From assembly GCA_030390025.1 (NCBI GenBank), contig CM059432.1:86058001-86122000 (forward strand): 64,000 bases of DNA, written 5' to 3'. The notes under the pieces were generated by a model. That model did not search any database, was not told the origin of the DNA, and worked only from the letters and a program-made list of their open reading frames with translations. A program made the translations under genes and the position numbers. Positions 2,485 through 62,411 of this stretch are shown here, piece after piece (position 1 is the stretch's first letter; every line of letters begins with the position of its first letter). The DNA comes from Squalus acanthias. Taxonomy: Eukaryota.

Positions 2485-4461
2485 CTATAAGTGCTTAATC
2501 TTTCTCTTATGCGTGCTTCTACGTGGTGCTTCCCCTGTGGCTTCAGCAGCTGTAGAGGCACCTTGCTGACTAGGATGCTGCGCCTGCTTAGACGCCGTTG
2601 GTGGGCGTCCTCTGGGTTTAGGAGCCTGGGAGGGCTCTTCAACAGTCTGCTCTTCCTGCGGCGGTGCAGGGGCTGAAACGGCCATCTCAGTTGTCTCCGC
2701 AAAGTGGGTCTCTGACCGAGGGCTCCGCAGTGGCATGGTCATGTGAGTGCTTTGAAAAAAGCCCATGCTTCCTCTGTCCTGCCAACAACATCCCTCTCAT
2801 GGGTCAGCCACACCTCAGTGCTGGCAAGTAGCTGGAGAGCACCTTGTTGCACATCAGGGGGAACATGAAGACCCGTATCTGCACTGGCAGTCCTCATCAA
2901 AAGGACGTCCATGAAGCTCTGGTCTCTCTGCTCAATAGCTGCCCATTGCTCCTCCAGAGATGACATTCTATTTTGAACAGTCACCATGTTTTCCTGACTC
3001 TGGTGACTTATTTCCTCCATGGAGGTAGCCGTCCTTTCCACTGAGGTAGCCAGCCTTTCCATGGAGGTTGCCATCCTATCCATGGTGCTGCGTTCATGCG
3101 CCATTGCCTCCACCACGGCAGTGCTGATGTTACAGATGGACTCCTTCATTCTCTCCACAGTCGCACTAACCCTGGAGGTAAACGCTTCCAGAGACTCCTG
3201 CACTTGTTCCTGTATTTCCCAAGACGCTCTTTTTCTGGATGGCCCCAGAGGCACAGCGTCTGCATGCAGCTCAGCAGAGCTAGGAGATTGCTGCGATCTC
3301 CGCCAAGGACTCTCCACTGCTGTCGCTGTCTCCACCATCTGCTGATGCTCACTTGTGCGCTGTGATAGACCAGGTGGCAAAACTACTCTAACTCACGAGG
3401 GCCCCACCGAGGTGTGCGTTGCTGCGCTGGTGCTGGGTGCGCTGAGTCCTGGTGACGCTGCTCCCTCTGAGGCTTCAGGTTCCTCTGAGGAGTTGTCCGG
3501 CTCTTCATCCTGGGTCCTGTGGGAGAGTAAAGGCATGATTTAGACATCTGATATTGATGTAGCAGATGATACAACACGATTCTCTATGAGCATCATATGC
3601 CATTGCATTCTGAGAGGGATGAAACTCTATTATGTCACCAGCTTCCTCTAGTGTGCCCGTCTCTCCATCACCCACTTCCAGGTCCTCGCCACCTCCAACA
3701 ATCTGGTATGCAGCCTCCTCAGCTTCTTCTAGTGTGCCCATCTCTCCATCACCCACTTCCAGGTCCTCGCCATCTCCAACAATCTGGTATGCAGCCTCCT
3801 CAGCACTGGTCAATGTGGCTAGGGTAGTAGGTGTTCCTCCTCCAGTCATTGCTCTCTCCCTCTTATTGTGGGCTATCTTTTCGTGCAAGGAGGGACACAA
3901 GTGGTGTTTCAGCCACAGTGATGGAGTGAGTGTGAATAATCCCTACCATAGAAGCTTTGAGGGAGACGAAGATGGGTAAGGTGCCAAGAGGAAGCTAGCT
4001 CCCTGTGCATTGGTAGTTGTCATTGCATGAGAGTGAGAGCGAGTCTAAGGGGTGCATAGGCAGGATGCTGAAATGATTCAGTACAGAGACAGAGATGGAC
4101 AGGTAAGGGTGCAAGGGAAGTAAAGGTAAGGTGGATATGAAGGAGGAGGCTTCCAAAGCAGAGTACTGGTGATGAGAAGAGAAGGGAAGTAGATTGAAGG
4201 CAAGTGTGATGGGATACTCACTTTTGATGTTTGCACAAGATCATTAAACCTTTTTCGGCACTGGATCCATGAGCATGAACATATGGACCTTGTGCTGACC
4301 TCTTCAGCAATGAGCAGCCAGGCTGCCTTGGTCTGCTGAGGAGGCTTCCTCCGGCCATCAGGCGGGAAGAGAATCTCCCTGCGCCCTCTGACAGCATCCA
4401 CAAGAGCATGGAGGGAGTCGTCATTAAAACGAAGAGCTGCTTTGCCTCTCGAAGAAGTCAT
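2485..4461 (-). pseudogene. Harbinger Myb/SANT-like (MSANTD-type) DNA-binding gene; exons ~4461-4222, 3882-3639, 3516-2485; disrupted
   Basis: MTSSRGKAALRFNDDSLHALVDAV...W..IAEEV...SWIQCRKRFNDL, then GTGAGT donor at 4221. Exon 2 EKIAHNKRERAMTGGG has a mutated acceptor (CAC). Exon 3 has coiled-coil heptads, an AT-hook-like KPRGRPP, an internal stop and frameshifts. Confidence 0.8.
3640..3804. repeat. 81-bp tandem duplication inside exon 2 of the Myb/SANT gene
   Basis: Two near-identical copies encoding AEEAAYQIVG(D/G)GEDLEVGDGE(M/T)GTLEEA. Confidence 0.95.
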
Positions 4462-6059
4462 TGCGTATAAATCAATATCAATGAGTCCAGGAATCCACAA
4501 GAGAAAGGCTTGGGCTGAATGGCAGCTTTGACAGCAGCTGCTATGAGGACAGCAGCAGAGGCGGCCAGTCGACCCGATCCCACTCATTGGACCAGCTAGC
4601 GTGGCTCATTGAAATCAACAAGCTCATTGAATCAAAATCGGACAATAGCAGCCGATCCCGTCGGAAGCGGCTCCGGAACCCGCCCACCATGCAACCAGAC
4701 TCCAAACCACCTCAGGAATTAAAATCGAGCCCTTTGTGTCTATCTTCACGGAAGAAGACGTAAAAAACTTCCCGGAAACAGTGGAGAACCAAGGGTCTAG
4801 CGAGAATGAGGAACTGAAAGATATTTGTACTAGTAAAAATTTAGTACTGGAGAAATTAATGGGACTGAAAGTCAATAAATCCCCTGGACCTGATGGCCTA
4901 CATCCTAGGGTTTTGAAAGAGTTCGCTATAGAGATAGTGGATGCATGGTTGTCATTTTCCAAAATTCCATAGTTTCTAGAACGGTTCCCACAGATTGGAA
5001 GGTAGCAAATGTAACCCCACTATTTAAGAAAGGAGGGAGAGAGAAAACGGGGAACTACAGACCAGTTAGCCTGACATCAGTAGTCGGGAAAATGCTAGAA
5101 TCTATTATTAAGGACGTGGAACAGGGCACTTCGAAAATAATAATAGGATTGGGCAGCGTCAACACGGATTTATGAAAGGGAAATAGTGTTTGACAAATCT
5201 GTTGAACTTTTTTGAGGTTGTAACAAGCAGAATAGATAACGGAAACCAGTGGATGTGGTGTATTTGGATTTTCAGAAGGAATTCGATAAGGTGCCACACA
5301 AGAGGTTATAAAACAAAATTAGGGCTCATGGGATTGGGGGTAATATACTAGCATGGATTGAGGATTGGTTAATGGACAGAAAACGGAGAGTAGGAATAAA
5401 CGGGTCATTTTCGGGTTGGCAGACTGTAACTAGTGGGGTACCGCAAGGATCAGTGCTTGGGCCTCAGCTATTCACAATTTATATCAATGATTTGGATGAG
5501 GGGACTAAATGTAATATATCCAAGTTTGCTGATGATACAAAGCTGGGTGGGAATGTAAGTTTTGAGCAGGATGCAAGGAGGCTTCAAGGGGATATAGACA
5601 GGCTAAGTGAGTGGGCAAGAACATGGCAAATGGAATATAATGTGGAGAAATGTGAAGTTATCCACTTTGGTAGGAAAAATACAAAAGCAGAAATGGTGAG
5701 AGAGATTGAGTAGACTAGGCCTATATTCTCTGGAGTTTAGAAGAATGAGATGTGATCTCATTGAAACATATAAAATTCTTACAGGGCTTGACAGGGTAGA
5801 TGCAGGGAGGATGTTTCCCCTGGCTGGGGAGTCTAGAACCAGGGGTCACAGTCTCGATAAGGGATCGACCATTTAGGACTGAGATGAGGAGAAATTTCTT
5901 CACTCAGAGGGTGGTAAATATTTGGAATTCTCTACCCCAGAGGACTGTGGAGGCTCAGTCGTTGAGTATATTCAAGACAGAGATCAATAGACTTTTGAAT
6001 ATTAAGGGAATCCAGGGATATGGGGATAGTGCAGGAAAGTAGTGTAGCGCAGCTCACCA

Positions 6060-7188
6060 CTCCCTGCTGTTTCCTCCTCTTGTCAGCTCTTTCCCCAGGG
6101 TTGAAAAGCTTGCACTGATTGATATGGAACCACTTAGTGCGTCGAGGCATTTTGACCGCATATACCATCGGACTTGCCCTATCCACGATACTGTACGGTC
6201 CCATGTATAGCGGTTCAAAAGTCCCAACCCTGGCGAAGTTTCTAACCATTACTTGATCTCTGACCTTCCACTCGTGGTGCCTCTGAGGCTCAAGCAATAA
6301 ACGATTTCTACGATTTTGCTTTCCCATGTTACTGGCAGCCTGCCAATGGATCTGTCTGAGATGCTCAAACAAATTCTTAACAAACCTGTCCCGGTTCACC
6401 TCTCTCAACTGACCTTCCGTGAGAACCGGGGCCAGTACATGGCTGGGCGTTCTCATGACCCTGCCAGTCACGAGCTCATGCGGGGAATACCCTGTGCTTC
6501 TAGACGGGCTGGCTCGGACCCCCATCAGAACTAACGGCAAGACCTCCGCCCATTTTCTAGGCGAGTCTCCCGTCTCCTTCCTATTCATCCGCTCCACAAT
6601 CCCCAATGACTGCGGGTTGTGTGCGACGTGCCATTTACCCTCTACACCTAGCATCTTCAGAGTCGCCTGCATGACTGCCCCTGTGAAGTGACTTCCCTGA
6701 TCGGACTCCACATACTGTGGTAGCCCCCACCTAGAGAACACTTCTCTCACTAGAATCCTTGCGGTCCCCAAAGCTGTGGCTGTTCGGCATGGGAAGGCTT
6801 CTACCCATTTAGAGAACACATCCACCAGGACCAGGCAGTACTTGTAACCCCCCTGTGCGGTGGGCAGCGGTCCGATATAATCAACCTGTATGGACTGCCA
6901 TGGTCCCTCCACTCTCCTCCTAGTGTGTCCCATGGATACCTTCCATTTCTGGGGGTCAGGGTTGTTTGCAGCACACACCAAGCAATCCGCGCAGAAGTCG
7001 CAGACGTCTTCCCTCAGTTGCGGCCACCACCCTGCCTGTTCCACCCGTTGCCAGGTGGTCTCCGGCCCGGGGTGCCCTGCTCCTGGATCCTCGTGGGCCA
7101 ACTGAAGGAATTCTCTCCGGTGCTGCTGCGGAACTACCCACTGTTCCCCTCTGAAAACCATCCCTTCCTTTACCGTAATACCTGCCAC
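6060..7188 (-). pseudogene. Integrase
   Basis: HHCC (AHEDPGAGH...CLVC), DDE triad (QVDYIGPLP, SDQGSHF, IVERMNR) and C-terminal GPY module. Confidence 0.93.
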
Positions 7189-7260
7189 TCCGTATGGACC
7201 CTCTACCTTATCTCCCTTAGCCAGCGTCTCCAGAACAGTCTTTAGGGCGGGATCCCGTGC

Positions 7261-8359
7261 CTAGACCATCTTTAGGTCCGGAGCCAATGCTACCCCTGCA
7301 CTCCCTTGGGTCCCACCTCTGTCTCTGATTGCTGCTACCAGACTCGACCCATATGGATCCCAAAACGTGCCCGTTCGAGCACCTGCTTTGGTCAGCACGT
7401 CGGCCTGCTGATTGCCCTCCGCACAGGGTTCTGCCTTAGAATGGGCCTTGTCTTTGTGGATATAGAAATCCCCCTGGGTTCCTATCGATGTTATGATCTG
7501 TTGCAACAATGGCTTGGTTGCTAGGGGTTTCCCGTCTGCAGATGTGAACCCGCGACGAGACCAAATGGCTAAATATTCTGTACACGAATTGCAAGTGAAC
7601 ATGCTGTCCGAGCAAATCGTGTAGGGCGTAGGGAACTCTTCGGGGTGGATAACCACATACACCACCGCCGACAGTTCCGCGTGCTGGGCGCTCATGGTGC
7701 TTGGGAGTTTAATGGCCTTGGCAATGCCTGCCTTTGGGTCAAAAATCCCGCATCCAGTGAGTCGCTCCCCGGCCACCACTGTACTGGACCCGTCTACATA
7801 GATCTCGCGGCCCATGGGATGGATCCCAGCCCGAAACCCTATGTCTACGTTCCATACCCCTTCAACAGAGCATTTGTGGACCACCCCTGGGTAGATAAAA
7901 TTTGCGGCGAGCTTGGGCTCACAGAGGCCTTTCACACTCAAATTCATCAGAAAGAGCAATAAAGTCCAGCGAGCAATGCGTGCACTGCTCACCGTGCCGT
8001 CCTTTATCCTCCCATCCAGAAGCATCTGAGTGGGCGTATGATGGGTTAAGAGAGTTATTGGGGACGCCCCCGTGAAGATTTGTGATCTCCTCACGGCCCA
8101 ATGTGTGGCAAGCAGGTGCCTCTCACAATTGGAGTACCCCCTCTCTACATCTGTGAGGATTCTTGATGAGTATACCACAGGCCTCAGCTTGCCATGCCAC
8201 TCCTGGAGCAGCACTGCAGGTCAAACTGTCCCCTGTGGCAGCTACCTCCAAAAAGAACTCCTTTCCCCCATCAATCGCTCCTAAAGCCGGTGCGGTCTGC
8301 AGATCTCTCTTCAGACGACTAAAAGCTGCCATGCAGTCCTCATCCCACTCCCAGCCCAC
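7261..8359 (-). pseudogene. Tether/connection domain (degenerate RNase H) followed by a retroviral-type RNase H
   Basis: RPVVYSSRILTDVERGYSNCERHLLA...ARIARWTLLL, then IYVDGSS...SAQHAELSA...ICSDS...WSRRGFTSADGKP...KAH...GNQQAD. Confidence 0.88.
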
Positions 8360-9755
8360 TCCCTTGTGGAGGAGCCGGAGTAGAGGAGCTGCCGTAGCGG
8401 CACAGTCCTCTATGAAATCCCTGCAGTACCCTGAGTCCCAGGAAGGATCTTACCCCCGTTACCGTGGTCGGGGCAGGTAGCTCCTGTACCGCCTTCCTTT
8501 TCGCCTCATCGATGGCCCTCTCCCCAGCACGCACAGTCAGCCCGAGGAATTTTACTTCCTGCTGGCCGATCTGTGCTTTCTTGGGATTAACCTTGAACCC
8601 AGCTTCCTTTAACAGACTCAGCAGCTCAGCCAACAGGGGGCCATGCTCCTCCCCCTCGTTGGAGAACAAAAGCAGGTCGTCCACGTACTGCACAAGCCGC
8701 TGCGGTCTGCTAAACCCTTTTAAACAGTTGGCCATACATTGGTGGAAAATAGAAGGACTGTTATGAAACCCTTGGGGAAGGCAGGTCCATGTGTACTGCT
8801 GACCCTTGAAAGTGAATGCGAACTTATACTGGTCCTCCCTTTTGAGAGGGATAGACTAGAATCCGTTCGAAATGTCCAGCACCGTGAATGTTTTCGTGGA
8901 TGCTGGGATACTCCCGATCAGGTCGGCTACGGCTGCGACGGTGGGGGCACAGGCTGGGATGTTCTTGTTAAGAACCTGATAGTTCACAGTGGCTCTCCAC
9001 GAATTGTCCGGTTTCCTAACCGGCCAAATCGGAGAGTTCACATGCGTCGCTATGGGTATCAACACACCCTGCTCAACCAATAATCCCAATGCCATCTCTA
9101 AATCCGCCTCTGCCTCTCTGGGGAAGTTGTACTGTTTCTGTGGTCGGGCCATGGGGTCTCCTTCTACTCTGACCTCCACCCCTATTACCCTCCCACAGTC
9201 GTGCTTGTGTGTAGCGAATGCCGCGAGGTTGGCTCGCACATCCGCTATGTACTCCGCCGGTGTAGAAGTGACCAAAAGTTCAAGGTCATAACTACCCTTG
9301 GGCTTCATCGTACACACGGTTCCCTTGCCTTGCTTCCCTGGTATAACTACCACCTCCTTCTCCTTTCCCGTGCATACTGCCCCCCAAAGACAGTGATTCC
9401 GGAAATCCACCAATATCTTGTGGGCCAGTATGAATTCTGCCCTCAAAATGCCTATTCCCTCCCGCTCCCACCGCATCAGGACACATTTCCACTCCGTATG
9501 GAGTGTACCCAGATCGATGGCTAGTGGGATGGAGAAAGACCCAGCCTGTTCGTTCCCTGTGAACCCTACTAAGTTATATGGGACCCCGTTTGATAGAGGT
9601 GATGTGGTCGGGTTATCCGCATAGACAATGGTGCTTGTAGCTCCAGTGTCCAGCAGATAGGTCCCTTGCACCTTCTCCACCCCCATCTTCACGCACGGTC
9701 TCTTCCAAGCATCATAACTTAGTGGGCACAGGTAAACGGGCTGAGAAGCCCCTAG
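8340..9755 (-). pseudogene. Aspartic protease and reverse transcriptase
   Basis: YLLDTGATSTIV; NSPIWPVRKPDNSWR; VLDISNGF; LPQGFHNSP; LVQYVDDLLL; VKFLG. Stop at 8856-8858 and frameshifts. Confidence 0.92.
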
Positions 9756-12650
9756 TCATTGGTCGGGATTGTTCGGGGCGGATGGGAGTACGCTGCCGCG
9801 TCCACCCTGCCCTGCCGGAAAGACTGCGCGGCGAGCAGCCACTAATACCGCGAACGGACCAGTGCTGCTTCCTGCCACAGCTGCGGCTTTCTGCACTGGT
9901 GCTGGAGGATCCCCTTTCCCGCTCCTTTTGTCAGAGACTGGGCAGTCTTTCCTCCAGTGCCCTTTACTCCCGCACCCATAACAACCCTGCTTCTTCTCTG
10001 AGCTACCCCCCTCCTGGCGCCACTCTCGTCTAACATTGCCTCCACCAGGCTTTAACTCGTGTACTCTGCCCTTTTGGTTTGTCATCCTCACCCCTACCAT
10101 TCTTAGAGAGAGTTAACTGCCGGATCTCACACTCGTCTGTGGTCTGGGGATCCCTGGAATCGAACCACCCCTCTGCTTTGGCCTTGATCCTGGGCAGGCT
10201 GTTCGCCACCAGGGTCCTCAGCCAATGAGCCCTAGGCTCCCGCTGCAGCTGCGCCCGGTTGGGCACCCCCGCACAGGCACTCCAGTAGACGGGCCAAAGC
10301 CTGTCCGCGAAAGCCTGCGGTGCCTCCCCAGCTGACTGCAGTGTCCTTTCCACTCGGGAGAAGGGACTTCCATCATTGAGGCCCATAGCCTCTAGGATGT
10401 CATCCTTTATCCCCTCTAACGTACCCTGCCCCCTCTTGCTACCCGCTGAGAGCAACTGGTACAACCTACTATCCAGGGAAAATAAAAGTAATTTGGCTGT
10501 CTCAGCTTCGTTGCAATTATTGATCCCCCCCCCCCACCTGCTCCACATCCGTAAAATGGACAGATAGGTCCCCTGTGCTGGTCAGTTTGGTCAGGTTAGA
10601 GACCATTGCCTGCAGCTGGGGGGTTGTATATGGGACCACGAAGTCACTCTGCAGTGCTCCTTGCTCTTGACCGTCTACGGGCGCACCGTATTTCCGCTGC
10701 CGGACAGGGCACATGGGTCCTGGTCCCGGCCCTTCGGGCGGTGGTCGAGCGTCCTCCTCTGCCTCAGTCCTCCATATCTCCCTCTTGCTCTTCCTCATCT
10801 ACCCAGGCCATTCCCGGAGCTACCAAGCAGACCATCCCTTTGGCCTTAGAGCATCGGTCAAATTCCGGATCTGCTCCTGGCAAAGGACCATGATTACCCG
10901 TATCAAACCCTCCAGTGCTGGCGACTCTGTATTGTAAGGGGTTTTTGTCTCGGGCTTATTTGTAGGTCAGCCAGTTATGTTTTCCTGGACTGTCCTTGCC
11001 CGCTGTGCGGTTGCGAATCGCTATCCCCTTATTAGTTCTGAGCCCAGGACTTATCAAGCGGCAATAAGGACAAACGAACAAACCCGTGGATTGGTGCGAG
11101 GAAAACCAATGTTTATTTAACAGAGATGAAACATAACATGTCAATCTTAACTTCGGTATAAACGAGGGAAATGACAGTAGAACAATACCTCACCCCTCCC
11201 AACCCCACTTTACTAGCTAAGTTAGACTCTTGAGGACCAGGGATAATGCTCACCAAACGAATCCTTTGACAGTTGAGGATATGGTTTAAAGTCCTTTTAA
11301 GTAAAAAGTTTCATAAGGCCCTTGTGCCTCGAGGTGTTTGATGGTCACTGGAACCGTTGCTCTGGTTCCTTGCGTGTCGGTCTGTTTCTGGAGCTGCTGG
11401 CCTTCTTTGTTGAACGGTCTTGTTTCTCTTGAACTGTGTACTGGAGAACTCCTGTGCTTCAGCTGTCCTGCTTGTGGCCTCTCTGTGTAGAACTCCTGCT
11501 TGTTCCAGCACAGGTCTCTGTAGCCCCCGGCTTGTAGAACTCGTCTCTCTCCCCCTCCGGCTTGTTCCAGTCTAAAGTTATACTGTTCGATTGTTCCTTA
11601 TTTGGCCGCCAAATCTTCCCAGTGCTTTGTTTAATTCTGGTCGGCTCGTTAAGGTAGTTAACTTTTAATGGCAGGAGATGGCCTTTAACGATATTAAATA
11701 TTTGTTAAGTGGAGGATGATTGCTGGTCTGATGGTTGTTCATTTGTGTTGCCTTTACTTCTTTGTATAAATGCTAAACAGTTTGATGGGGCTGGAGATAG
11801 GTCGAATATACAACATTGTCTGTAGAGGCCAGCCTCGCCTCCTTTGGCAGCCTCTGAGGTCTGTTTAAAAATGTTTTAAAATGTCCCTGGTCCAATACAC
11901 TCAATTGGTTTTAAAATGTCCAAAGCCCCTTTTTCTTAGGGTCTCTCTCTTTTCCTCTGAGTCTTTTGGGGGTCTGGGAATTTCGCAACTCTCTTACAGA
12001 CCTGGGCATGTCACCTTGCCTGCTGTTTTTGCAGGGCCCTGGTTTCTGTTCAATGTCGCAGGCTTCTGCCATGAGGTCTAGAAGCCACTTTGTCCAGGGT
12101 ACCCCTTATTAATAACTCTGGGGAATGTGGGAATTTTGAGAACCCTACAGTATGCCACCTGAATATCCTTTAACTGCTCTCCCAGCACCTTTACCTCACT
12201 CGACAAGCGAGCGTTCTCCTCCCTAACCACCCTTTCATTCCCCTTTGCCTCAGTTACCTGGCATTGCAGGAACTCCTTATGGTTACGGAAGGTTTCCTCC
12301 TGGCTTATTCTTCCCTGCTTCTCCTCCCTTAGCTCCGTGCATAACCTGCTCCCTGCTACAGCCCTTGCGTCTGACTGTGCCTCGGACTCCCTGAGCTCTG
12401 CCTCTAACTTCGCAACCTGCTTATCTAGCAGTTGGACTTGTCTTTGTAGACAGACAAGCCATATCGCTTTTTCAGTGCTGCGCTTATGCTCCTTGCCCTC
12501 CGTCCATTCTGCCGCTGCGTCCACCAGATGCTCAGCACGCAACAAGCCTAGCACCCACTTCTTAGTGATGTTAACCTTCTTAAACACATATGAAGAAATC
12601 CTTTCCTCCATTTGGGATCTTTCGCCAGAAGCGCTGTCCATGACTGATTT
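9756..12650 (-). pseudogene. gag, interrupted by a solo LTR at 10933-12149
   Basis: Coiled-coil N-terminal ORF 12078-12686 rejoins as DIQVAY|RVAST after removing the insertion; capsid-like ORF 10030-10548; single zinc knuckle CYGCGSKGHWRKDC. Confidence 0.8.
10933..12149 (-). mobile_element. Solo LTR, family B (1217 bp), inserted in gag
   Basis: TGTAAGGG...CCCTACA termini; 4-bp TSD GTAT (10929-10932, 12150-12153); minus-strand AATAAA near 11112-11117. Confidence 0.85.
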
Positions 12651-12667
12651 ACACTCCTTTAACCCAG

Positions 12668-12685
12668 GTCCTGCCACGGTCGCCA
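12668..12685 (-). promoter_or_regulatory. Primer-binding site, probably tRNA-Arg(TCG)
   Basis: TGGCGACCGTGGCAGGAC, 5 nt downstream of the LTR. Complementary to the recalled vertebrate tRNA-Arg(TCG) 3' end GTCCTGCCGCGGTCGCCA with one G:U pair. Confidence 0.75.
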
Positions 12686-12690
12686 AGAGA

Positions 12691-13817
12691 TGTAAGCGGT
12701 TTTGATCCTAGCCCAATTGCTAGACGGACGGTTCGAATCGCCCCCGCCTTACGAAAGTTCTATACCCGGGAATTATTATTCAGAGTGTAAATGAAATAAG
12801 TCACGGACAGGAATGCTTCGGTGAAAAATCGTACTTATATTTATTTGGTCTAACATACACTGGCTAAAACATGCACTACTAAACGAAATTACTGTCTCTG
12901 TGGAGAATAAAAATCCAGGTTACAAACAACATACATACAGTACCCAACTGGGGACTATGACAAGCAGTAATTCACTTGTTGCTGTGGTGGACTCTAATTC
13001 CACCCCTACCAACGAATTACCCAGTCGCATAAGCCCCTTTGCCTGGCTGAACCAAATGAAGCTCCCACCCCGGAATAGCCCAAAAGCTTCACTTCTGAGA
13101 AAAACTCTGAGCCCTCTGGTTACCTGCTTGGGACACTCGAGACCATGCTTACCACCACTCTTGATCGCTCCGCTTAGCTGCTTCTTCCTCTGGTACTACT
13201 TCTTGTTAGGTCGATCTTGGTGCAGCAAGAGAGAGAGAGAATGGCGGGAAAGGGTCTATCTTTATAGGAGTCTCGCTACCCCTATCTTTCCCGCCAATCT
13301 TTAAAATCCTTTTGTTTCTAAGCACTCCGGTGCTTAATCAGTGATGGGTCATCCTCAGACCCATGAGTATTCCGTGATTGGACTAAAGGCCCTAAGTCTG
13401 GGACATCTCTCGGTCTTTGTGTTGGGGAAAAACTGGCTCCTCTCCGGCTGGCTAGGCTAGTGGGTTCATTGTTCTGCTTCTCTTCTGAGATGGAGGTGAG
13501 AAGTGCTTTTGCATATTAGAGTGGCTTTCTAATAGGTTCAAGTTCAACGGGTGCCTCAGGGTCCTCAGCCCCTTTGTCAATGGCCCCCCTTCCTTTTTCC
13601 AGGACTGTCGGGCAAACCCATACATTCGGGATGACTGACAGGTCTTTTGTCACAGCCAACTGCCATGCGTTCTCTGGAGTTTTAACAAACCAGTTTTTCA
13701 CATATCTGCACAGGGTGATCCCATCACAGGGAAAATACCCTCAGAAAAATCCCATAAAGTCCACAAAATATACTCGACTGAGTCCATTCTTCAAACAGAG
13801 ACTTTGCGATCTCTTCA
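12691..13817 (-). repeat. 5' LTR, family A (1127 bp)
   Basis: TG...CA termini; minus-strand TATAAA at 13261-13266 and AATAAA at ~12840-12845; close homologue at 39275-40291. Confidence 0.93.
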
Positions 13818-17031: not shown

Positions 17032-17235
17032 CCTGCTTTCTATCCCACCCCTGACCTTCCCCTTTGTTCTTTCATCCCCTCCCCCTTTTCCCAGCTTTAT
17101 ACTTGCTTTAAATCTATTTCATTTCCTGCTTTTTTCTAGTTCTGACGAAAGGTCTTCGACCTGAAACGTTAACTCTGTTTCTCTCTCCATGGATGCTGCC
17201 TGGCCTGCTGAGTTTTTCCAGTGTTTTCTGTTATT
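17032..17235 (+). mobile_element. Penelope-like pseudo-LTR fragment with hammerhead motif
   Basis: Flanked by TCCATGTAG/TCCATGCAG; homologous to the Penelope ends at 24060-24320 and 41480-41590. Confidence 0.75.
17138..17174 (+). ncRNA. Minimal type I hammerhead ribozyme motif
   Basis: AGTT-CTGACGA-A-AGGTC(TTC)GACCT-GAAA-CG-TT-AACT. Confidence 0.65.
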
Positions 17236-24054: not shown

Positions 24055-25140
24055 TAACAATGTAACAATATCAACAGAAAATGCTGGAAATATTCAGCAG
24101 GTCAGGCAGCATCTGTGGAGAGGGAAACAGTTAACGTTTCAGGTCGGTGACCTTTCATCAGAACTGGAAAATGTTACAGATGTAACCGGTTTTAAGCAAG
24201 TACCGAGACTGGGTAAGGCGGGGATGGAGGGGGCGCAGAGAAAAGAACAAAAGGATAGGTCTGTGATGGGGTGAAAGGCAGGAGTGATTAAATGACAAAA
24301 TGGATGATGGTGCCAGGCAAAAGACTCTATTCTCAGTTTCTCCGTCACATCTGCTCTAATGCAACCTTCCACACCAGTGCTTCCGATACATCTTCCTTAG
24401 TCCTCAACTGAGGATTCCCCTCCACCGTGGTTGACAGAACCCTCAATCTTGCCTGTCCCATTTCCTGCACTTCTGCCTTTAGCCCTTCCCCTCCTTCCAA
24501 GAACCACAATAGGGTTCCCCTTGTCCTCACTTTCCACCCCACCAGCCTCTATATTCAACAGACCATCCTCCACCATTTCCGCCACCTCCAGCGTGATCCC
24601 ACCACCAAACACATCTTCTCCCCCACTCCCCTTTCGGCATTCCGAAGGGACTGTTCCATCCGCAACACCCTGGTCCACTCTTCCATCACCCCAAACACCT
24701 GTTCCCCTTCCCATGCAAGCGCAGGAGATGCAACCATCTGCCCTTTCACCTCCTCCCTTCCCACCATCAAGGTGAAACAGCGATTTACTTGTACTTCTTT
24801 CAAGTTAGTATACTGTATTCTCTGCTCACGATGCAGTCTCCTCTACATTTGGGAGACCAAACACAGATTGGGTGATCGCTTTGCTGAACACCTCCGTTCA
24901 GTCTGCAAGCGTGACCCTGAGCTTCCGGTTGCTTGCCATCTTAACTCTCCGTCCCACTTCCACTCTCACTCTGACCTCTCTGTACTTGACCTCCTGCACT
25001 GTTCCAATGAAGCTCAATGGATGATCACTGCTCCCATTTTTTCGGACAGCAGGTGCTGGTAATGATTCTGCTGTTGCCATTTACACCTCCTCTAGACCCA
25101 TCTTTTGTTTCTTTACATTTTCCAGTTCTGATGAAAAGGC
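24055..25140 (+). mobile_element. Penelope-like element 3' part (GIY-YIG endonuclease) preceded by an inverted pseudo-LTR
   Basis: ORF 24427-25062: RVPLVLTFHP...FTCTSFKLVYCILCSRCSLLYIWETKHRLGDRFAEH...PVACH. 24060-24320 is an inverted copy of the terminal repeat. Confidence 0.85.
24128..24166 (-). ncRNA. Minimal type I hammerhead ribozyme motif
   Basis: CAGTT-CTGATGA-A-AGGTC(ACC)GACCT-GAAA-CG-TT-AACTG on the minus strand. Confidence 0.7.
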
Positions 25141-25874
25141 ACGCATGCACACGTTAATTTTAACATATATATGGAAATGATTTTGTTGTGTTTAGATAAG
25201 ATATTTTTGTTTGTTGGGTTATGGCAGATACCAGCCAATGCACTGTGTATTTCAGTAGCAATATCCACAGTGAAGAATGAATTAGGATGTACAGCTTTAA
25301 TTAGTTTATTTAACAGTTGATTACTAGAAAATGATTCTGCTGTACATATAAATAATGATCGCTACTATTAAATAAAAAATATTTTTTCTGTCATTCTACA
25401 CCTTGCTTAGTCTGCGAGGGAAAAAAAGCGGAAGACTGAGTAGAGACCAGGCATTTTTCTGCAAAATGGATAAATGTTAAAGATAGACTAGTATTACGTA
25501 TTTCCTAGGTACAGATTAAAGTGCATCCTTGGCAGAAATCTTGGAACTCTGCTGAGAATGATGCATGCCATATGAGAAGGGGGGAAATGCATTAATTGAA
25601 TGGGGCAGATAATGCGATAGTGTTCCCAAAGCACTTTAGTCCACATTATTGGGCTCTGCTCAATGAATTCCATAATGCGTTGCGACTACATAGTTGGTGC
25701 GTAGAACCTTGGCAGCAAATGTGTGCAAGACTCATTAACTATTCAGTTTCTTTTTAACTTGGGCCAAAGGCCTGTAATATAACTAAAGAGTCTGAGTGGT
25801 GCTCCAGAAGTTAAGCACCTATTTGGAATGGGCACTTCAGGAGAAGCCTGTCCAAATATTGTAACGTTTTCTTT

Positions 25875-30915: not shown

Positions 30916-31594
30916 AAACATAAGAACATAAATAGGAGCAGGAGTAGGCCATTTGACCCCTTGAGCCTGCTCCGCCATTCAATAAGATCATGGCTGATCT
31001 TCTACCTCAACTCCACTTTCCTGCACTTTCCCTATATCCCTTGATTCCCTTCATATCCAAAAATCTATCGATCTCTGTCTTGAATATACACGACGACTGA
31101 GCCTCCACAGTCCTCTGGGATAGAGAATTCCAAAGATTCACCACCCTCTGAGTGAAGAAACTTCTCCTTATCTCAGTCCTAAATGGCCAACCCCTTAATC
31201 TGAGACTGTGACCCCTAGTTCTAGACTCCCCAGCCAGGGGAAACATCCTCCCTGCATCTACCCTGTCAATCCCTGTAAGGATTTTGTATGTTTCAATGAG
31301 TTCACCTCTTATTCTTCTAAACTCCAGAGAATATAGGCCTAGTCTACTCAATCTGTCCTCATAGGACAATCCCCCCATCCCAGGAATCAGTCTGGTGAAC
31401 CTTTGTTGCACTCCCTCTATGGCAAGTATATCCTTCCTTAGGTAAGGAGACAAAAACTGTACACAATACTCCAGGTGTGGTCTCACCAGGGCCCTGTATA
31501 ATTGCATGATGTGGAGATGCCGGCGTTGGACTGGGGTGGACAAAAATGAGAAGTCGCACAACACCAGGTTATAGTCCAACAGATTTATTTAATT

Positions 31595-31633
31595 TTACAA
31601 GCTTTCGAAGCAGTTCGCTCCTTCGTCAGGTAA
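31595..31633 (-). ncRNA. Minimal hammerhead ribozyme motif, mirror copy
   Basis: Exact reverse complement of 31665-31703. Confidence 0.7.
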
Positions 31634-31664
31634 GTTAGCAATGAGAGATTCTCTCATTGCTAAC

Positions 31665-31703
31665 TTACCTGACGAAGGAGCGAACTGCTTCGAAAGCTTG
31701 TAA
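31665..31703 (+). ncRNA. Minimal hammerhead ribozyme motif
   Basis: TTAC-CTGACGA-A-GGAGC(GAACT)GCTTC-GAAA-GC-TT-GTAA. Confidence 0.7.
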
Positions 31704-34224
31704 AATTAAATAAATCTGTTGGACTATAACCTGGTGTTGTGCGACTTCTCATTTCTGTATAATTGCAGTAAGACATCTTTACTCTTATTCTCAAATCCTC
31801 TTGTAATAAAGGCCAACATACCATTTGCTTTCTTAATTGCTTGATGTACCTGCATGTTAACTTTCTGTGATTCGTGTACAAGGACACCCAGGTCCCTCTG
31901 AACACCAACATTTCCCAATCTCTCACCATTTAAAAAATACTCTGCTTTTCTATTTTTCCTGCCAAAGTGGATAACTTCACATTTCTCCACATTATATTCC
32001 ATTTGCCATGTTCCTGCCCACTCACTTAGCCTGTCTACATCTCCTTGAAGCCTCTTTGCAACCTCCTCACAACTTACATTCCCACCTAGCTTTGTATCAT
32101 CAGCAAACTTGGATATATTACATTTGGTCCCCTCATCCAAATCATTGATATAGATTGTGAATAGCTGAGGCCCAAGCACTGATCCTTGCGGTACCCCACT
32201 AGTTACAGCCTGCCAACCCAAAAATGAGCTGTTTATTCCTACTCTCTGTTTTCTGTCCGTTAACCAATCCTCAATCCATGCTAGTATATTACCCCCAATC
32301 CCATGAGCCCTAATTTTGTTTTATAACCTCTTGTGTGGCACCTTATTGAATGCCTTCTGAAAATCCAAATACCCCACATCCACTGGTTCCCCCTTATCTA
32401 TTCTGCTTGTTACAACCTCAAAAAACTCTTAACAGATTCGTCAAACACTATTTCCCTTTCATAAATCCGTGTTGACTCTGCCCAATCCTATTATTATTTT
32501 CGAAGTGCCCTGTTACCACATCCTTAATAATAGATTCCAGCATTTTCCCTACTACTGATGTCAAACTAACTGATCTGCAGTTCCCCGTTTCTCTCTCCCT
32601 CCTTTCTTAAATAGTGTGTTTACATTTGCTACCTTCCAATCCGCGGGAACCGTTCTAGAAGCTATTGAATTTTGGAAAATGACAACCAATGCATCCACTA
32701 TCTCTATAACCACCTCTTTCAAAACCCTAGGATGTAGGCCATCAGGTCCAGGTGATTTATCAGCTTTCAGTCCCATTAATTTCTCCAGTACTATTTTTTT
32801 ACTAATACTAATTTCTTTCAGTTCTTCATTCTCTCTAGACCCTTGGTTCTCCACTATTTCTGGGAGGTTTTTTGCGTCTTCTTGCGTGAGTCTCTCTGTC
32901 CCTTCCTGGCCCACTCTGCTTATTTTTACCAAAACTCTGCTCTGCTTGAGAGCCCTGACATTTCTCTTGCTGCTTTTAAATTTACTCTTTCCTGAATCCT
33001 CCAGGTGGTCTAAAGCCCTGTCTACTGCCCACGTTATTCGATTCGCCAGGACACTGGTTCCAGCCCGGTTTAAGTGGAACCCGTCCCAATGGAACAGCTC
33101 CCTCTTTCCCCAGTACTGGTGCCAGTGACCCATGAAGCAAAACCCCTGCCTCCCACACCACTCTTTTAGCCACACATTTAACCTTCTAATCTGCTTATCC
33201 CTATGCCAATTGGCGCATGGCTCAGGTAACAATCCAAAGATTATTACCTTTGAGGTTCTGTTTTTTAATTTGGTCTCAAACTCTCTCAGCAGAACCTCAC
33301 TCCTAGTTCTACCTATGTCGTTGGTTCCTACGTGGACCACGACAACTGGATCCTCCCCTTCCCACTCCAATTTCTTCTCCAGCCACGAGGAGATGTCTTT
33401 AACCCTGGCACTGGGCAGACAACACAACCTTCGGAACTCCCGGTCGTGGTTGCATAGAACAGTATCTATCCCTCTGACTATACTGTCCCCTACCACAACT
33501 ACATTCCTTTTCACTGCCCCCACTTGAATGGCCTCCTGCGCTATGGTGCCATGGTCAGCTTGCTCATCCATCCTGCAGGCTTTTTCCTCATCCACACAGG
33601 CAGCAAGAACCTCATACCTGTTGGATAAGGACAAATGCTGAGGTTCCTCCAGCATTTCACCTGGGGTCCCCTTACCTGCCTGAGTTGCAGTCACACCCTC
33701 CTGTCCCTGACCACTAACCAGACCTGTACCACTACCTAACCTAAGGGGTGTGACTGCCTCCTGGATCAAAGTGTCCAGGTAACTCTTCCCCCTTCCTGAT
33801 GTCCCGCAATGTCTGCACCTCAGACTCCAGCTCAACAGCTCTGAGCTGAAGTTCCTCGAGATGCAGACACTTACTGCAGACATGGTTGTCCGGGATCACA
33901 ATGCTCTCCCCAACTCCCACATGCTGCAGTTGAGGCACATCACCTGCAAGGCCATCCCTATATGATCTTGTTCTAGTTAATTAAATTTAATTTAAATTTG
34001 TATTTAAGTAACTTAGTTTACAGTTTAGTTTCTTGACTACCTAATTGATCTAGATTAAGTTATGGGTAATGAAATTAAGTATCTACCTGTAACACAAAGC
34101 ACTACAAGTAGTGTAGGCAAAAAGCAGCAACTCCTTCCCCCTCTTCTCCGAATTCCCACTCTTTCCAAATTCCCAAATGAAACACTCTGTTTACGTGCAC
34201 TCCGTTTAATTCCGTCCACTCTGT

Positions 34225-36768: not shown

Positions 36769-37481
36769 ACCACGATTGATGAAGTCATGAAGTGCTGACT
36801 GTTTAATGAACCCTGCCATAGCTATGCAATAGGTCACTGTGTTTCGCAAAACTTCTATGCTTCAGTCTTACACTCTTGTTTTGCAAACTCCTGAGCTTCA
36901 TCCCCTTACGCCCCCACCTCAATGAATTTCGAACTCGGCATGACGCTGAGCTCTTTTTCTGTCGCCTTCATCTCTGTGCCCACTTCGTTGGCCAGGAGTC
37001 TTTCCCCCGCACAGCTGTCAGAATTCTTGTTCTACCTGGACCCCTCCCTCTGGCCTCTTATCCTCTCTAGATCTTTTCATTGTGAACTGCTGGCGTGACA
37101 TCGGCCGTCTCAATTTCACTGCTCCCCTCACTCACTCCAACCTACCTCCCTCTGAACTTGCAGCACTCCGTTCTCTCAGATCCATTGTCATTAAACCTGC
37201 TGACAAGCGTGGTGCTGTTGTTGTTTGGCGAACTGACCTCTACCTTGTGGAGGCTGAATGCCAACTCTCTGACACCTCCTCCCTCTGGATCATGACCCCA
37301 CTACCGAACATCAAGCTATCGTCTCCAAGACTGTCACTGACCTCATCCGCTCTGGAGAACTTCCCTCCACGGCTGCCAAGTAGCATTGTTGCCCAACCCC
37401 GCACAGCCCGCTTCTACCTCCTTCCCAAGATCCACAAATAGGACTGCCCTGGTAGACCCATCGTTTCAGCCTGTTCTTGCT

Positions 37482-41063: not shown

Positions 41064-41599
41064 CTTATTTCTTCCTATCTCGACTCTATTTTTTCTCCCC
41101 TTCTCCTCTTCTCACCTACATCCGCGACTCTTCAGACGCCCTCCGCCACTTTAACAGTTTCCAGTTTCCTGGCCCCAACTGTCTCCTTTTCACTATGGAC
41201 GTACAATCCCTCTACACCTGCATCCCCCACCAGGATGGCCTGAGGGCGCTCCGATTCTTCCTTGAACAGAGGCCCAACCAGTCCCCATCCAGCACCACCA
41301 TCCTCGCCTGGCTGAACTTGTTCTCACATTGAACAACTTCTCCTTTGACCCCACTCATTTCCTCCAAATAAAAAGTGTTGCTATGGGGACCCGCATGGGT
41401 CTTAGCTGTGCCTGCCTTTTCGTGAAATATGTGGAACATTCTTTGTTCCAGTCCTACTCGGGTCCCCTTTCTCACCTCTTTTTCCAGTACAGTTCTGACG
41501 AAAGATCATCAACCTGAAACGTTAACTGTTTCTCTCTCCAGAGATGCTGCCTGACCTGCTGAGTATTCCCAGTATTTTCTGTTTTCATTTGAGAATTTC

Positions 41600-43620
41600 C
41601 TGGAGCACACGTCACAGGAGGTGGTCACCCCACAGCTACAGAGAGTTCAGGAGAATAGTAAGAGGGCAGCAATCCGGCCGGGTAGCAAAAGGTAGGCAGT
41701 GCCAGAATCCGCCGAGAGTGTGGCACTCTAAAGCCAGTTTTCAGCACTGAATACCACTGAGGGTGACGACTCCTTGAGGGAGTACAGTCTAGGGCACATC
41801 CACGGCACTGTGGGGCAAATAACTGCACAGGGGGCACAACAAAGTGTAGAAATGCAGTGATCATAGGGGATTCGATAGTCAAGGAGATAGGCAGGCATTT
41901 CTGCAACCATCAACGCAAGTTCCGCATGGTGTGTTGCCTCCCTGGTGCCAGGGTAAAGGACATCACTGAGAGGTGCAGAACATTTTGAGGGGGAAAGGGA
42001 ACAGCCAGAAGTCCATGTGGGAACTAATGACATAGGAAGGAAAAGGGTTAAGGTCCAGCAGTCAGCATTTCAGGAGCTAGGAAAGAAGTTAAAAAGCAGG
42101 ACCTCAAAAGGTAGTAATCTCTGGATTTCTCCCAGTGCCACGCGTATAAGAATAGTAGGATAAAACAGGTTAACGCATGGCTGGAGAAATGGTGCAGGAG
42201 GGAGGGCTTCAGATTCCTGGGGTATTGGGACCTGTTCTAAGTGGACTAAAGGTGTAGAGGTTAAAATGAGACAGTAAAGGGAGACTTATGACAATTGTAA
42301 GGTTCATAATACAGTAGAGAACCAAGCTGAATATAGAAAGTACAGAGGAGAGCTAAAAAAGGAAATGAGAGGCAAAGAGATAGTATGAGAATAGATTAGC
42401 GGCTAACATTAAAGGGAACCCAAAAGTCTTTTATAAACATATAAATAGTTCAAGGGTAATCAAAGGAAGGGTGGGGCCGATTAGGGACCAAAAAGGAGAT
42501 CTTCTTGTGGAAGCGGAGGGCATGGCTGAGGTACTAAATGAGTACTTTGTGTATGTCTTCACTACAGAAGAGGTGAACAGTTGTTTTTCAGACTGGAGGA
42601 AAATATACAGTGGTGTTCCCCATGGGTCAGTATTAGGACCACTGCTCTTTTTGATATATATTGTTGACCTGGACTTGGGTATACAGGGCATTAATTCAAA
42701 GTTTGCAGATGATACGAAAGTCGGAAATGTAGTAAACAATGAGGAAGATAGTAACAGACTTCAGGAGGACATAGACTGGTGAAATGGGCAGACACACGGC
42801 AGATAAAATTTAACGCAAAGAAGCGTGAAGTCATATATTTTGGTAGGAAGAATGAGGAGAGGCAATATGAACTAAATTGTACAATTTTAAAGGGGGTGCA
42901 GGAACAGAGATCTAGGGGTGTATGTACATAAATCTTTGAAGGTGGCAGGACAAGTTGGGAAGGCTGTTAAAAAAGCATATGGGATCCTTGGCTTTATTAA
43001 TAAGGGAATAGAGTACAAAAGCAAGGAAGTTATGCTAAACCTTTATAAAACACTGGTTAGGCCTCAGCTGGAGTATTGTGTTCAATTCTGGGCACTACAC
43101 TTTAGGAAGAAGGTCAAGACCTTGGAGAGGGCGCAGAAGAGATTGACTAGAATGGAACCAGGGATGAGGGACTTCAGTTATGTGGAGAGACTGGTGAAGC
43201 TAGGGTTGTTCTCCTTAGAGCAGAGAAGGTTAAGATGAGATTTGATAGAGGTCCTCAAAATCATGAAGGGTTTTGATAGAGTAAATAAGGAGAAACTGTT
43301 TCCAGTGGCAGAAGGGTCGGTAACCAGAGAAACACAGATTTAAGGTGATTGGCAAAGGAACCAGAGGTGACGTGAGGAAACTATTTTTTACACAGCGAGT
43401 TGTTGTGATCTGGAATGCACTGCCTGAAAGGGTGGTGGAAGCAGATTCACCAGTAACATTCAAAAGAGAATTCGATAAATATTTAAAGGGAAACAAATTA
43501 CAGGGCTATGGGGAAAGAGCAGGGGAGTGGGATTAATTGGATAGCTCTACCAAAGAGCTGGCACAGGCACGATGGACCAAATCACTTCCTTCTGTGCTGT
43601 ATCATTTTTTGATTCTATGA
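41600..43620 (+). mobile_element. CR1 LINE with internal deletions
   Basis: Esterase remnant ~41850-42240; RT pieces 42471-43536; ATTCTATG-type tail. Confidence 0.85.
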
Positions 43621-44304: not shown

Positions 44305-47095
44305 GGGGTAGAGTTTCTGCTTTGGGTGCAATCGGGAAACTGGGCACAAATTGTGTTTGAAATTAAGCTGTTTTTTCGAAGTGAAGTTATGGTTCAAGTT
44401 TCTGCCCAAACTCATTTGCCGAATCACAAATATAAAATCTTCCATGAACCAGCACAATCAGTCAGCGTAATAGAACATAATCGCTTTTTTCTTTGCATTA
44501 AAATATATTCATTGATGTATTTTAGAGTGGTAACTTGCTGCAGTTTTATTAACACAGCTGAAAATGGGTTTATCACAAAAATAAGCATTTTTAATAAGAG
44601 TGTCTAGTCCGCCACCTGTGATTAACCTGATTTTAAATCACTGAAAATGAATTTATAAAACTATATTGAGTAATTTACTAAGTTTCATTAGTGGACACTA
44701 GTCAGTTTCTTATAAATTAAACAATTTTTAAGATGTAAAGGGGGAGAAATTCGCGTTCGCCAGCAAAGTTGCCGGTGGAGTTAATGGCCGCTGAAAATGG
44801 CCGCAACGCTAATGGAGCAAAATTGGTCTGGGGGGCAGGAGATTGTTGGTGCAGCGCTTACCTTCCGTGCAACACCGTCCTGGTGACGTTGCTGGAGGCA
44901 TCCGAGACAAAGTTCCTGTCCAGGTGCGGCGTTGCAGCTTCCCACAGCTTCTGGAATCGAGGCTGTGGAGCTCATAAGGAACTGTGGGTAATGAAGAGGT
45001 CCGAGAATTAAAGGGGCCATACACACTGAAGCAATAGAAATTAAAATGAAGTGAGAGAATACAGTTTTCAACTCTTCCTGCCTTTTAAAAAAATATTTAA
45101 CGTTAAAAAGAAGTCCCAAATGTGAATATTCAGCTCTTAAAACTGAATTCCCTTCCTAACCTCAAAAAATTGGAAAAATGCCTCAGCACTAACATAAATG
45201 GCTCAGCAAGCCAGGGAAGGGGCACCCAGGGTCTCGCACTCAGCACTCCAGCTTTGTGCAGGGGGTCAACACTGCAAGAGAGGTTCTCTACCCACAGGGG
45301 CCAGGAGGCCCTCCAGAAAGAACAATGTGGGACCACATCACTGAGGCCATCACTGCCAGCAGTGTCGCCCCCACCACCTGGCTCCAGTGCCCAAAGAAGC
45401 TTCATGACCTCAGTCACTGGTCAAGGTCAGTGAACGCATCTTCAAAAGCCGTCTCCTACCAACTGCACCACTAGCCTCACACACTTCTCAATGCACGACC
45501 CCCACCCCCAATCACTCACCTACCAACAATCTACACCAATCACGAGGCACACCTTCCATTCCTAGCCTCACCTCACCCCCTTGGAGGAGACGGTGCAGAC
45601 CATTCCTGACAGGGGCATGGCTGAGCACTTCGCCAGTGGTGGGGCTGAAAGGATAAAAGATGCTGGTATCCTCATACGTTATCCTCCTTCTGGCATGCAC
45701 CCCATGATTTCCCGCCCTCCCATCACCACAACTCCACCTTTGTGCTTTCCTCATTTCACACACCCAAGAAACGGAGCCTGCCCAGCCAGTGGCTGACCAA
45801 GAAGAGGGAGAGGAGAGTGAAGAAGAAGAAGAAGAAGATTGATTTGACACTCCCAGCCACCAGCTCCCAGCCACCAGCTCCTCAAGGTCAACAGGCAAGG
45901 ACATTTGCAGTGTCGCCCACTGAAAGTCAGCAGCCTTCCACCAGCCATGCTACAGCCACCGTGGTAGCACTGCGTGACATCAGTAGGATAGGCAAAGGCA
46001 CACACAAGACAGTCACTAAGAGAATGCATACGGGTGATGAGTTAATTTCTTGATGTCACATTGGATGGATAGATGTATATAGGTGGATTGGAAAGTTTGC
46101 TTTCTGGTGGCTTTTATTTCAGCATCGTGGCCAAGAGGACGCTGTGATGGTCAGTAACAGATGGAAGGTAAGGTGTGGGACTAATGTTGAAAGGGGAATT
46201 GGGGTTGTGGTCACTGGGACTGAAGGCAGATGATTCCATCCCGGATATCCCGGCCACAAAGGGGCTGTCTGGGATGCATCCTTCCTTCTGATTCCGCCTC
46301 TTCTGCTTCCTCATCTTCTGTGTCTTCCTCTTCCCTCTGCAAGCGAATGTTGTAAATCTGAAATGACAGCATAATATGCTGGAAATACTCAGCTGGTCAG
46401 GCAGCACCTCAATCTGAGACGTGAACTCTCTTTTTCTCTCCACGGATGTTGCCTGACCTGCTGAGTATTCGCAGCATGTTCTGTCTTCTCAAAAGCCTTC
46501 ATTTACGATCCGAGCCCTTGCAAGTGTCCAGCAGCACTCCCTACACACTTAAAAAACTTTTCACATCTATTGCAGCAAGCCACCACTTCAATAAAATCCA
46601 AAAAAAAGGCCAAAACCTTAAATTCAAACTTACCTGAACGATGTGTGTGTCCCTTTAAGAGGTCTAGACATCACCACTGTCAGCCTGCTTGCACACCAGG
46701 TTACCCCAGGAACTGCCAGCAGCTGGCGAAAGAGCGGCGGCCAGCGTTTTAGCATCATTTAATGGCGCTATGGAGTGGCGCTAAAGCCACGAATTTCTAG
46801 CCCAAAAACTTTTAAAATATGCCTACTGGTACCTGTGCGCCAAAAAAGAGCTCAATTTGAAGACCCTCCTCGAATGGACTCAAACGGGCACAATCGGCGG
46901 AAATTCGCCTTCCTCCTTATTTCAATCTGGGTGTAAGGCCAGTTTTGTGGGTGGGACTGGCTTCGGGTGAAATGATTTTTAAAGCAGCGTTAAAGATCGC
47001 GGAAACTCAATTTACACTTGACATAACTTATGTTTAAAATTCACCAATCTTTTGTACTGGTTCGGCCAATTTCACCTATTTTGCGCTGAGCTACG
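44305..47095. mobile_element. Probable outer MITE (left TIR GGGGTAGAGTTTC), right end lost
   Basis: TIR-like start similar to the 14960 element; right TIR not found. Confidence 0.4.
44740..46803 (+). mobile_element. Harbinger-type element with decayed Myb/SANT gene and transposase tail remnant
   Basis: TIRs GGGGGAGAAATTCG / CGAATTTCTAGCCC; TSD AAA; MAQQAREGAPRVS...REVLYP...WDHITEAITASSVAPTTWLQCPKKLHDL followed by a GTCAGT donor; minus-strand acidic tail at ~46210-46340. Confidence 0.8.
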
Positions 47096-62152: not shown

Positions 62153-62227
62153 TTACAATACTAGCGCAAACTACTGGAAACATTACCCCAATATTTCTTC
62201 CTAACTCATCTCCTAAAAGACCTATAT

Positions 62228-62411
62228 GAAAGCAAAATACTGCGGATGCTGGAAATCTGAAATAAAAACAGAAAATGCTGGAAACACTCAGCAGTTCAGG
62301 CAGCATCCGTGGAACTGACAAAATGTCATCGACCTGAAACGTTAACTCTGTTTCTCTCTCCACGTATGCTGCCTGACCTGCTGAGTGTTTCCAGCATTTT
62401 CTGTTTTTATT
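62228..62411. mobile_element. Short inverted Penelope pseudo-LTR cassette
   Basis: Inverted arms ~62262-62313 and ~62359-62411 around a decayed hammerhead (CTGACAA...GACCTGAAACGTTAAC). Confidence 0.7.

Follow-up and report, generated by a model that had tools for sequence, protein, structure and literature searches.

A palindromic insert within a LINE

Positions 31507-31754 of the window, the whole 64-kb stretch of DNA analysed here, hold a 248-bp insert comprising two inverted arms and an unpaired extension. The left arm (31544-31648; sense on the minus strand) and the right arm (31650-31754; sense on the plus strand) are each 105 bp long and match one another without a mismatch around a central T at 31649. 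The 37-nt extension occupies 31507-31543 on the minus-strand copy, and an exact 13-bp direct repeat flanks the insert on both sides (31494-31506 and 31755-31767, read on the plus strand). The mismatch-free arms, 1-nt spacer, extension and 13-bp target-site duplication (TSD) had all been proposed in an initial annotation of this DNA, and each is exact on recomputation. At one given position, an exact 13-mer would recur by chance with a probability of 2.3e-8; allowing for 20 x 20 border placements raises this to approximately 9e-6. Within the window, the insert is the longest and cleanest of ten inverted repeats (at least 25 nt, with arms within 400 nt of one another); its palindrome occurs there as a single copy, and the 248 bp carry no ORF.

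The insert lies in the reverse-transcriptase (RT) frame of a LINE (31007-32320, minus strand), presumably of the CR1 family, the computed assignment being the Pfam match of ORF 31724-32320 to RVT_1 (E = 1.6e-14). The AT-rich left copy of the TSD falls within this frame, and the two minus-strand ORFs, 31724-32320 and 31007-31588, meet at the TSD. When the insert and one TSD copy are removed, the LINE frame is open across the empty site. Moreover, four other LINE copies in the window, at 81-87% identity, span the site without an insert. Because it splits the RT frame, the 248-bp palindrome is a true insertion into an older LINE.

No differences were found in 118 compared positions, which corresponds to a divergence of up to 2.5%. 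Half of this value per copy, at the epaulette-shark mutation rate of 7e-10 per generation (PMC10587355), which may not be that of the host, gives an age of up to ~1.8e7 generations. The insert had been described as very young. It is younger than the family-B cassettes of the window (see below), but the bound that these figures place on its age is too loose to support that description.

Elsewhere in the window, inspection by eye identified a frameshifted Gypsy-type retrotransposon remnant (~5932-12707, minus strand) with gag-, protease-, RT-, RNase H- and integrase-like frames, and a Myb/SANT-like frame resembling a Harbinger-associated protein (~2739-4605, minus strand).

A mirrored hammerhead motif

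The right arm contains a minimal type I hammerhead motif (31665-31703, plus strand), called by its pattern and pair counts. Stem I comprises 4 bp (31665-31668 with 31700-31703) and is followed by the core CTGACGA (31669-31675) and an extra A after A9. Stem II comprises 5 bp (31677-31681 with 31687-31691), including one G-U pair, and is closed by G10.1-C11.1. GAAA and GC follow, with cleavage predicted after 31699; stem III is the palindrome AAGCTT, and AATAAA stands downstream of the motif. The corresponding motif of the left arm (31595-31633, minus strand; predicted cleavage at 31599) mirrors that of the right arm about 31649. At the motif level, this is the anatomy previously annotated, with one hammerhead per strand and AATAAA downstream of each. 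An Rfam search up to E = 1 returned four unrelated weak matches, with no hammerhead among them.

When the motif was aligned with four copies from a second Penelope-like family in the window (family B), 45 of the 50 cells paired and 7 of the 10 pairs changed on both sides, a level reached in none of 500 shuffles under a structure set by the analyst. Such changes had been taken as covariation-like support. The seven both-sided changes stand, but all of them come from the insert's one sequence set against the four family-B copies; as judged from this alignment, they are a single contrast between two families and not independent covariation.

Folding predictions were made for one arm and for the whole cassette. 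In one arm alone, predicted pairing is 0.08-0.10 for stem II and 0.37-0.64 for stem I. In RNA of the whole cassette, from either strand, it is 0.0 for all nine pairs of stems I and II, and the full hairpin has a predicted folding energy of approximately -199 kcal/mol. The hammerhead is not recovered by minimum-energy folding (z = -1.8 and -2.0), a result that is no evidence either way. Minimal hammerheads are described as not cleaving when monomeric (PMC4209133), and dimeric PLE hammerheads are the work of Lunse et al., as reported in PMC6765202. Since the two motifs of the insert lie on opposite strands, no single transcript would carry two sense copies that could dimerise. The notion of a ribozyme cassette acting as a functional unit thus finds no support, given the strand arrangement and the predicted 0.0 stem pairing of the whole cassette. 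In these models, the second hammerhead is a mere mirror of the first, and the mirror copy disables the motif. Because whole-cassette stem pairing is predicted to be 0.0, the cassette is likely a dead stump rather than a ribozyme device. If transcribed, perfect 105-bp hairpins of this kind could yield long double-stranded RNA; no RNA crossing the centre was seen. Separately, the antisense of the hammerhead core (31626-31635, plus strand) and its mirror read as a splice donor, CAG then GTAAGT, by comparison with the donor consensus.

Abundance and end classes of the insert's family

Parts of the stretch were found in 20 of the 24 sequencing runs listed, the best of which held 0.79 of its 71 words. 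Records from four runs were aligned on 31400-31660, a segment that covers the left half of the insert and its LINE flank; they numbered 20,448 (run X4, read whole), 19,040 (run X1, 55% read), 2,368 (run X15) and 13. Unrelated flanks begin at two places. At the tail end (31505-31506), they were detected in 57 contigs of X1, 13 and 8 contigs of X15 and three reads of a further run, X21; at the tailless end (31541 and 31547), they were detected in 28 and 72 contigs of X4 and 50 of X1, both counts being taken among the best 19 of 488 loose ends. The insert's family is abundant, and it has two end classes, tailed and tailless. These two shared end positions indicate that the extension is no accident of a single copy: the tail is common to the family, whose copies can alternatively end approximately 37-42 nt further in. 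Many family copies diverge from the insert behind 31590 (47, 30 and 15 contigs), which places the insert in a minor subfamily.

A 9-nt quasi-palindrome (31645-31653), centred on the T at 31649, forms the head-to-head junction of the two arms. In X15, depth runs 319.3, 318.3 and 70.7; the last value equals 318.3 x 2/9, consistent with coverage that ends at 31653, 4 nt past the centre of the insert. This one depth step, weak in itself, suggests that the source element carries the quasi-palindrome and then diverges, such that the junction sequence may be native to it.

Paralogues of the host LINE were also found joined to the ends of the insert's family in contigs. Of the 15 joints listed (31 in all, their sides only 19-30 nt long), 5 cluster at 31438-31444 and 8 at 31495-31506, and one joint falls exactly at 31506 with the tailless end. 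The clustering suggests insertion hot spots in the host LINE.

Searches for motifs of the insert's family in viral, metagenome and prokaryote collections returned 0, 0 and 0 matches. Matches to a second motif at three loci of the collections were rejected as chance, being GC-rich and confined to the searched 20-21 nt. The family may be undescribed, as a search of the open literature on Penelope, hammerheads and sharks listed no paper on it.

Taken with the layout, these data suggest that the insert is likely the truncated, hammerhead-motif-bearing end of a Penelope-like retrotransposon (PLE), accompanied by a mirror copy and a short tail. The left arm would be a 5'-truncated pseudo-LTR (pLTR) copy, with the Penelope 'tail' at its 3' end; the right arm would be the inverted, tailless pLTR copy, from which the tail is missing. 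Features of EN+ PLEs found in the insert are the hammerhead motif, a head-to-head inverted 5'-truncated copy, the 37-nt tail and an AT-rich TSD. The initial annotation had recognised a Penelope inverted pseudo-LTR with a short tail, a reading supported by the layout, the TSD and the end classes. A MITE or other non-autonomous DNA transposon was rejected: terminal inverted repeats of a MITE reach both ends of the insert, whereas here 37 nt separate the left arm from the TSD and the family has two end classes.

A second Penelope-like family in the window

Two further cassettes, near 46345-46490 and 62228-62411, had been annotated as similar to the insert. They do share its layout, but they belong to a different family, family B, and have a hammerhead remnant only once, in a spacer. 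With borders at 46343-46487 and 62226-62411, neither gives a BLAST match to the insert at E <= 0.01, and outside the hammerhead core no similarity was found between the two families (best E = 1.1). The cassette at 62226-62411 has a 34-nt tail, 53-bp arms with two mismatches, a 45-nt spacer and a target duplication of 14-15 bp with one mismatch. That at 46343-46487 has 37-bp arms with six mismatches and a 40-nt spacer; a target duplication was sought at its borders, and none was convincing. In both of these short cassettes (2/2), the spacer is sense sequence that continues the tailless copy. A sense spacer together with a tail is not obtainable by fold-back of a single cDNA, so both arms of the short family-B cassettes would have been copied from RNA. 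Their geometry thus speaks for arms that were each primed on RNA, and less for copying by fold-back.

A longer family-B insertion (24067-25142) comprises an inverted tailless pLTR of ~250 bp and a 5'-truncated RT-thumb/GIY-YIG-like fragment (24328-25017), after which a family-B hammerhead starts and is cut off by other sequence at ~25143. Neither of the two PLE-like fragments in the window matched Pfam (0/2). The fragment at 24412-25059 was instead identified via eight homologues, which carry RT and GIY-YIG matches; the GIY-YIG match was present in three of the four scanned, in one of the four above the curated cut-off. Five of the eight homologues are named, from rays and whale shark, which makes a cartilaginous fish the probable host. 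Linkage of a pLTR to an RT/GIY-YIG ORF is seen for family B only, the collection scans for the insert's family having come back empty or with chance matches. Within family B, the layout of the insert thus recurs around three different centres, and the copy at 24067-25142 links it to a PLE ORF. The family-B centres in the window are variable and asymmetric.

A pyrimidine tract and AG come before the family-B hammerheads at 17110-17148, 25085-25133 and 41465-41501, where stem I begins. This resembles the intron end of Drosophila virilis Penelope, which maps to helix I (PMC4209133). At 41186-41600, a Penelope-like RT fragment runs straight into a hammerhead pLTR of family B, by internal deletion or template jump. 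An ORF at 36950-37441, without a Pfam match, resembles the N-terminal part of Penelope RT and includes a DKxG-type motif, which we take to be a mark of that enzyme.

Integration of the insert

We think it quite probable that the insert and its TSD are the product of EN+ PLE integration, in which two primings from staggered nicks were probably followed by a head-to-head join. The endonuclease would have nicked AT-rich target DNA at positions 13 nt apart. One nick would have primed synthesis from the RNA's tail end, and the other from a site 37 nt inside it (cf. PMC11167929). Both cDNAs would have run past the hammerhead core and stopped ~20 nt upstream of it. Their same-sense ends could then anneal at the 9-nt quasi-palindrome, with eight of nine positions paired and a central T-T, and annealing at this site would leave arms of equal length around a single central nucleotide. 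The resulting product has no ORF, its hammerhead is predicted to sit locked within a 105-bp duplex, and it would likely be dead on arrival. In vitro, PAc of the anole is described as cleaving and extending both strands at AT-rich DNA, with one start site on either side of the tail and with hammerhead cleavage dispensable; the parts covered give no model of an inverted join (PMC11167929).

Near 31590, the insert departs from most copies of its family, yet its arms are identical, which indicates that both derive from one template lineage. The argument for two primings is drawn from family B and is applied to the insert itself by extension. If true, the two-nick reading would account at once for both the inverted pLTR and the tail. 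No use of the term 'twin priming' for PLEs was found in the openly searchable literature. More tentatively, and with considerable doubt, shark-type Penelope stumps in general might record an integration in which both nicks prime and the cDNA ends join, the native 9-nt quasi-palindrome serving as a hot spot.

The strongest competing explanation, somewhat short of an even chance, keeps the Penelope origin and derives the mirror arm from fold-back self-priming of one cDNA at the junction palindrome, with synthesis up to the tailless site. The perfect identity of the arms fits such a process, and palindromes at junctions have been interpreted in print as the result of self-priming (PMC3846280). 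A 1-nt loop, however, cannot fold, and would leave a stem of 3 bp; the spacers of both short family-B cassettes follow the orientation of the tailless copy; and a stop 37 nt short of the end is directly explained by two start sites (PMC11167929). For the insert itself, we lean slightly towards two primings over fold-back, the two differing in the joining step only.

A non-autonomous family, in which a transcript of the entire 248-bp palindrome is mobilised as a unit by a PLE protein acting in trans, with centre and length shared among copies, is very unlikely. The insert does keep the cis end (tail and start sites), mobilisation of pLTR-only copies in trans has been described (PMC3846280), and a subfamily that resembles the insert in the hammerhead region is abundant in X4. 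Moreover, one of the 19,040 records of X1, which was 55% read, fits two places of the stretch. No record does so among the 20,448 of X4 or the 2,368 of X15, however, and none of the 15 joints listed, of 31, is a strand-change joint. The X15 depth of 318.3 drops to 70.7, i.e. 2/9 of a bin, centres vary in family B, and RNA paired over 105 bp, at about -199 kcal/mol, would probably be a poor template. In X4, the last bin still reaches a summed depth of 21,782, which speaks against the reading of the X15 depth step and by itself leaves room for centre-crossing contigs; coverage there falls off to plateau fractions of 0.03, 0.38 and 0.77 at the right edge versus 0.18, 0.45 and 0.76 at the left, the two edges being clearly different in the last bin only. 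The initial annotation had raised the possibility of an own non-autonomous family with a fixed centre, for which this indirect contig test, by two-place records and joints, gave no support.

Least credible of all is an assembly or library artefact in the form of a fold-back chimera: perfect palindromes are a known artefact class, no contig piece crosses the locus's own left junction among the best 24 of 42,136 listed (its flanks are high-copy, and the runs are represented by contigs) and the best runs contain 0.79 of the words, but the host LINE resumes in register after the exact 13-bp duplication, and the end of the right arm falls in the tailless class of family ends.

The locus itself is of little weight, as one of very many truncated Penelope-like insertions, within another repeat. 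Its value is that of a clean record of a still-unexplained step in PLE integration, and a survey of many stumps of this kind could tell fold-back apart from two-nick priming.

Comparison with known systems

The layout of the insert is an ordinary pattern, already published as a PLE signature (PMC8557442, PMC3846280, PMC4209133). PLE insertions typically comprise an inverted 5'-truncated copy and a tail of 30-40 bp (PMC8557442, PMC8969392), and an inverted pLTR with a 31-bp tail, TSDs of 8-10 bp and palindromes at the inverted junction has been described (PMC3846280). Tandem and inverted structures of this kind have been ascribed to undefined features of the PLE cycle (PMC8557442). Like EN+ PLE insertions of the Penelope/Poseidon and Neptune groups (PMC8557442, PMC3846280), the insert features a head-to-head inverted copy, a one-ended tail, a TSD and a junction palindrome; unlike them, it is truncated to the point of having no ORF, with equal arms and a 1-nt centre. 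Its TSD is 13 bp long, against 8-10 bp in the rotifer PLE examples (PMC3846280).

Minimal hammerheads of metazoan PLEs possess an extra base at 9/10.1, a G10.1-C11.1 pair and a palindromic helix III, and dual motifs on opposite strands, 100-700 bp apart, were reported in 2014 (PMC4209133). The insert's motif resembles these in being type I with a short helix I, the extra base at 9/10.1, G10.1-C11.1 and a palindromic helix III, and differs in its helix II of 5 bp with a G-U pair (PMC4209133). Unlike the metazoan pairs, the two motifs of the insert lie ~40 bp apart and are fully complementary, and neither is predicted to fold. Non-LTR retrozymes are likewise non-coding and PLE-derived, with type I hammerheads, but form head-to-tail tandems with at least two hammerheads on the same strand, whereas the insert is arranged head to head with one per strand (bioRxiv 10.64898/2026.07.22.740005). 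Membership in that group was ruled out, as the insert has no same-strand tandem hammerheads.

The further comparison is with PAc, a Poseidon element of Anolis carolinensis (PMC11167929). The ORF of PAc begins inside its hammerhead, whereas the insert has the core CTGACGA with no frame continuing from it. As in PAc, the end classes of the insert's family lie one tail length apart and the target is AT-rich, and in both the hammerhead lies upstream of the ends (PMC11167929).
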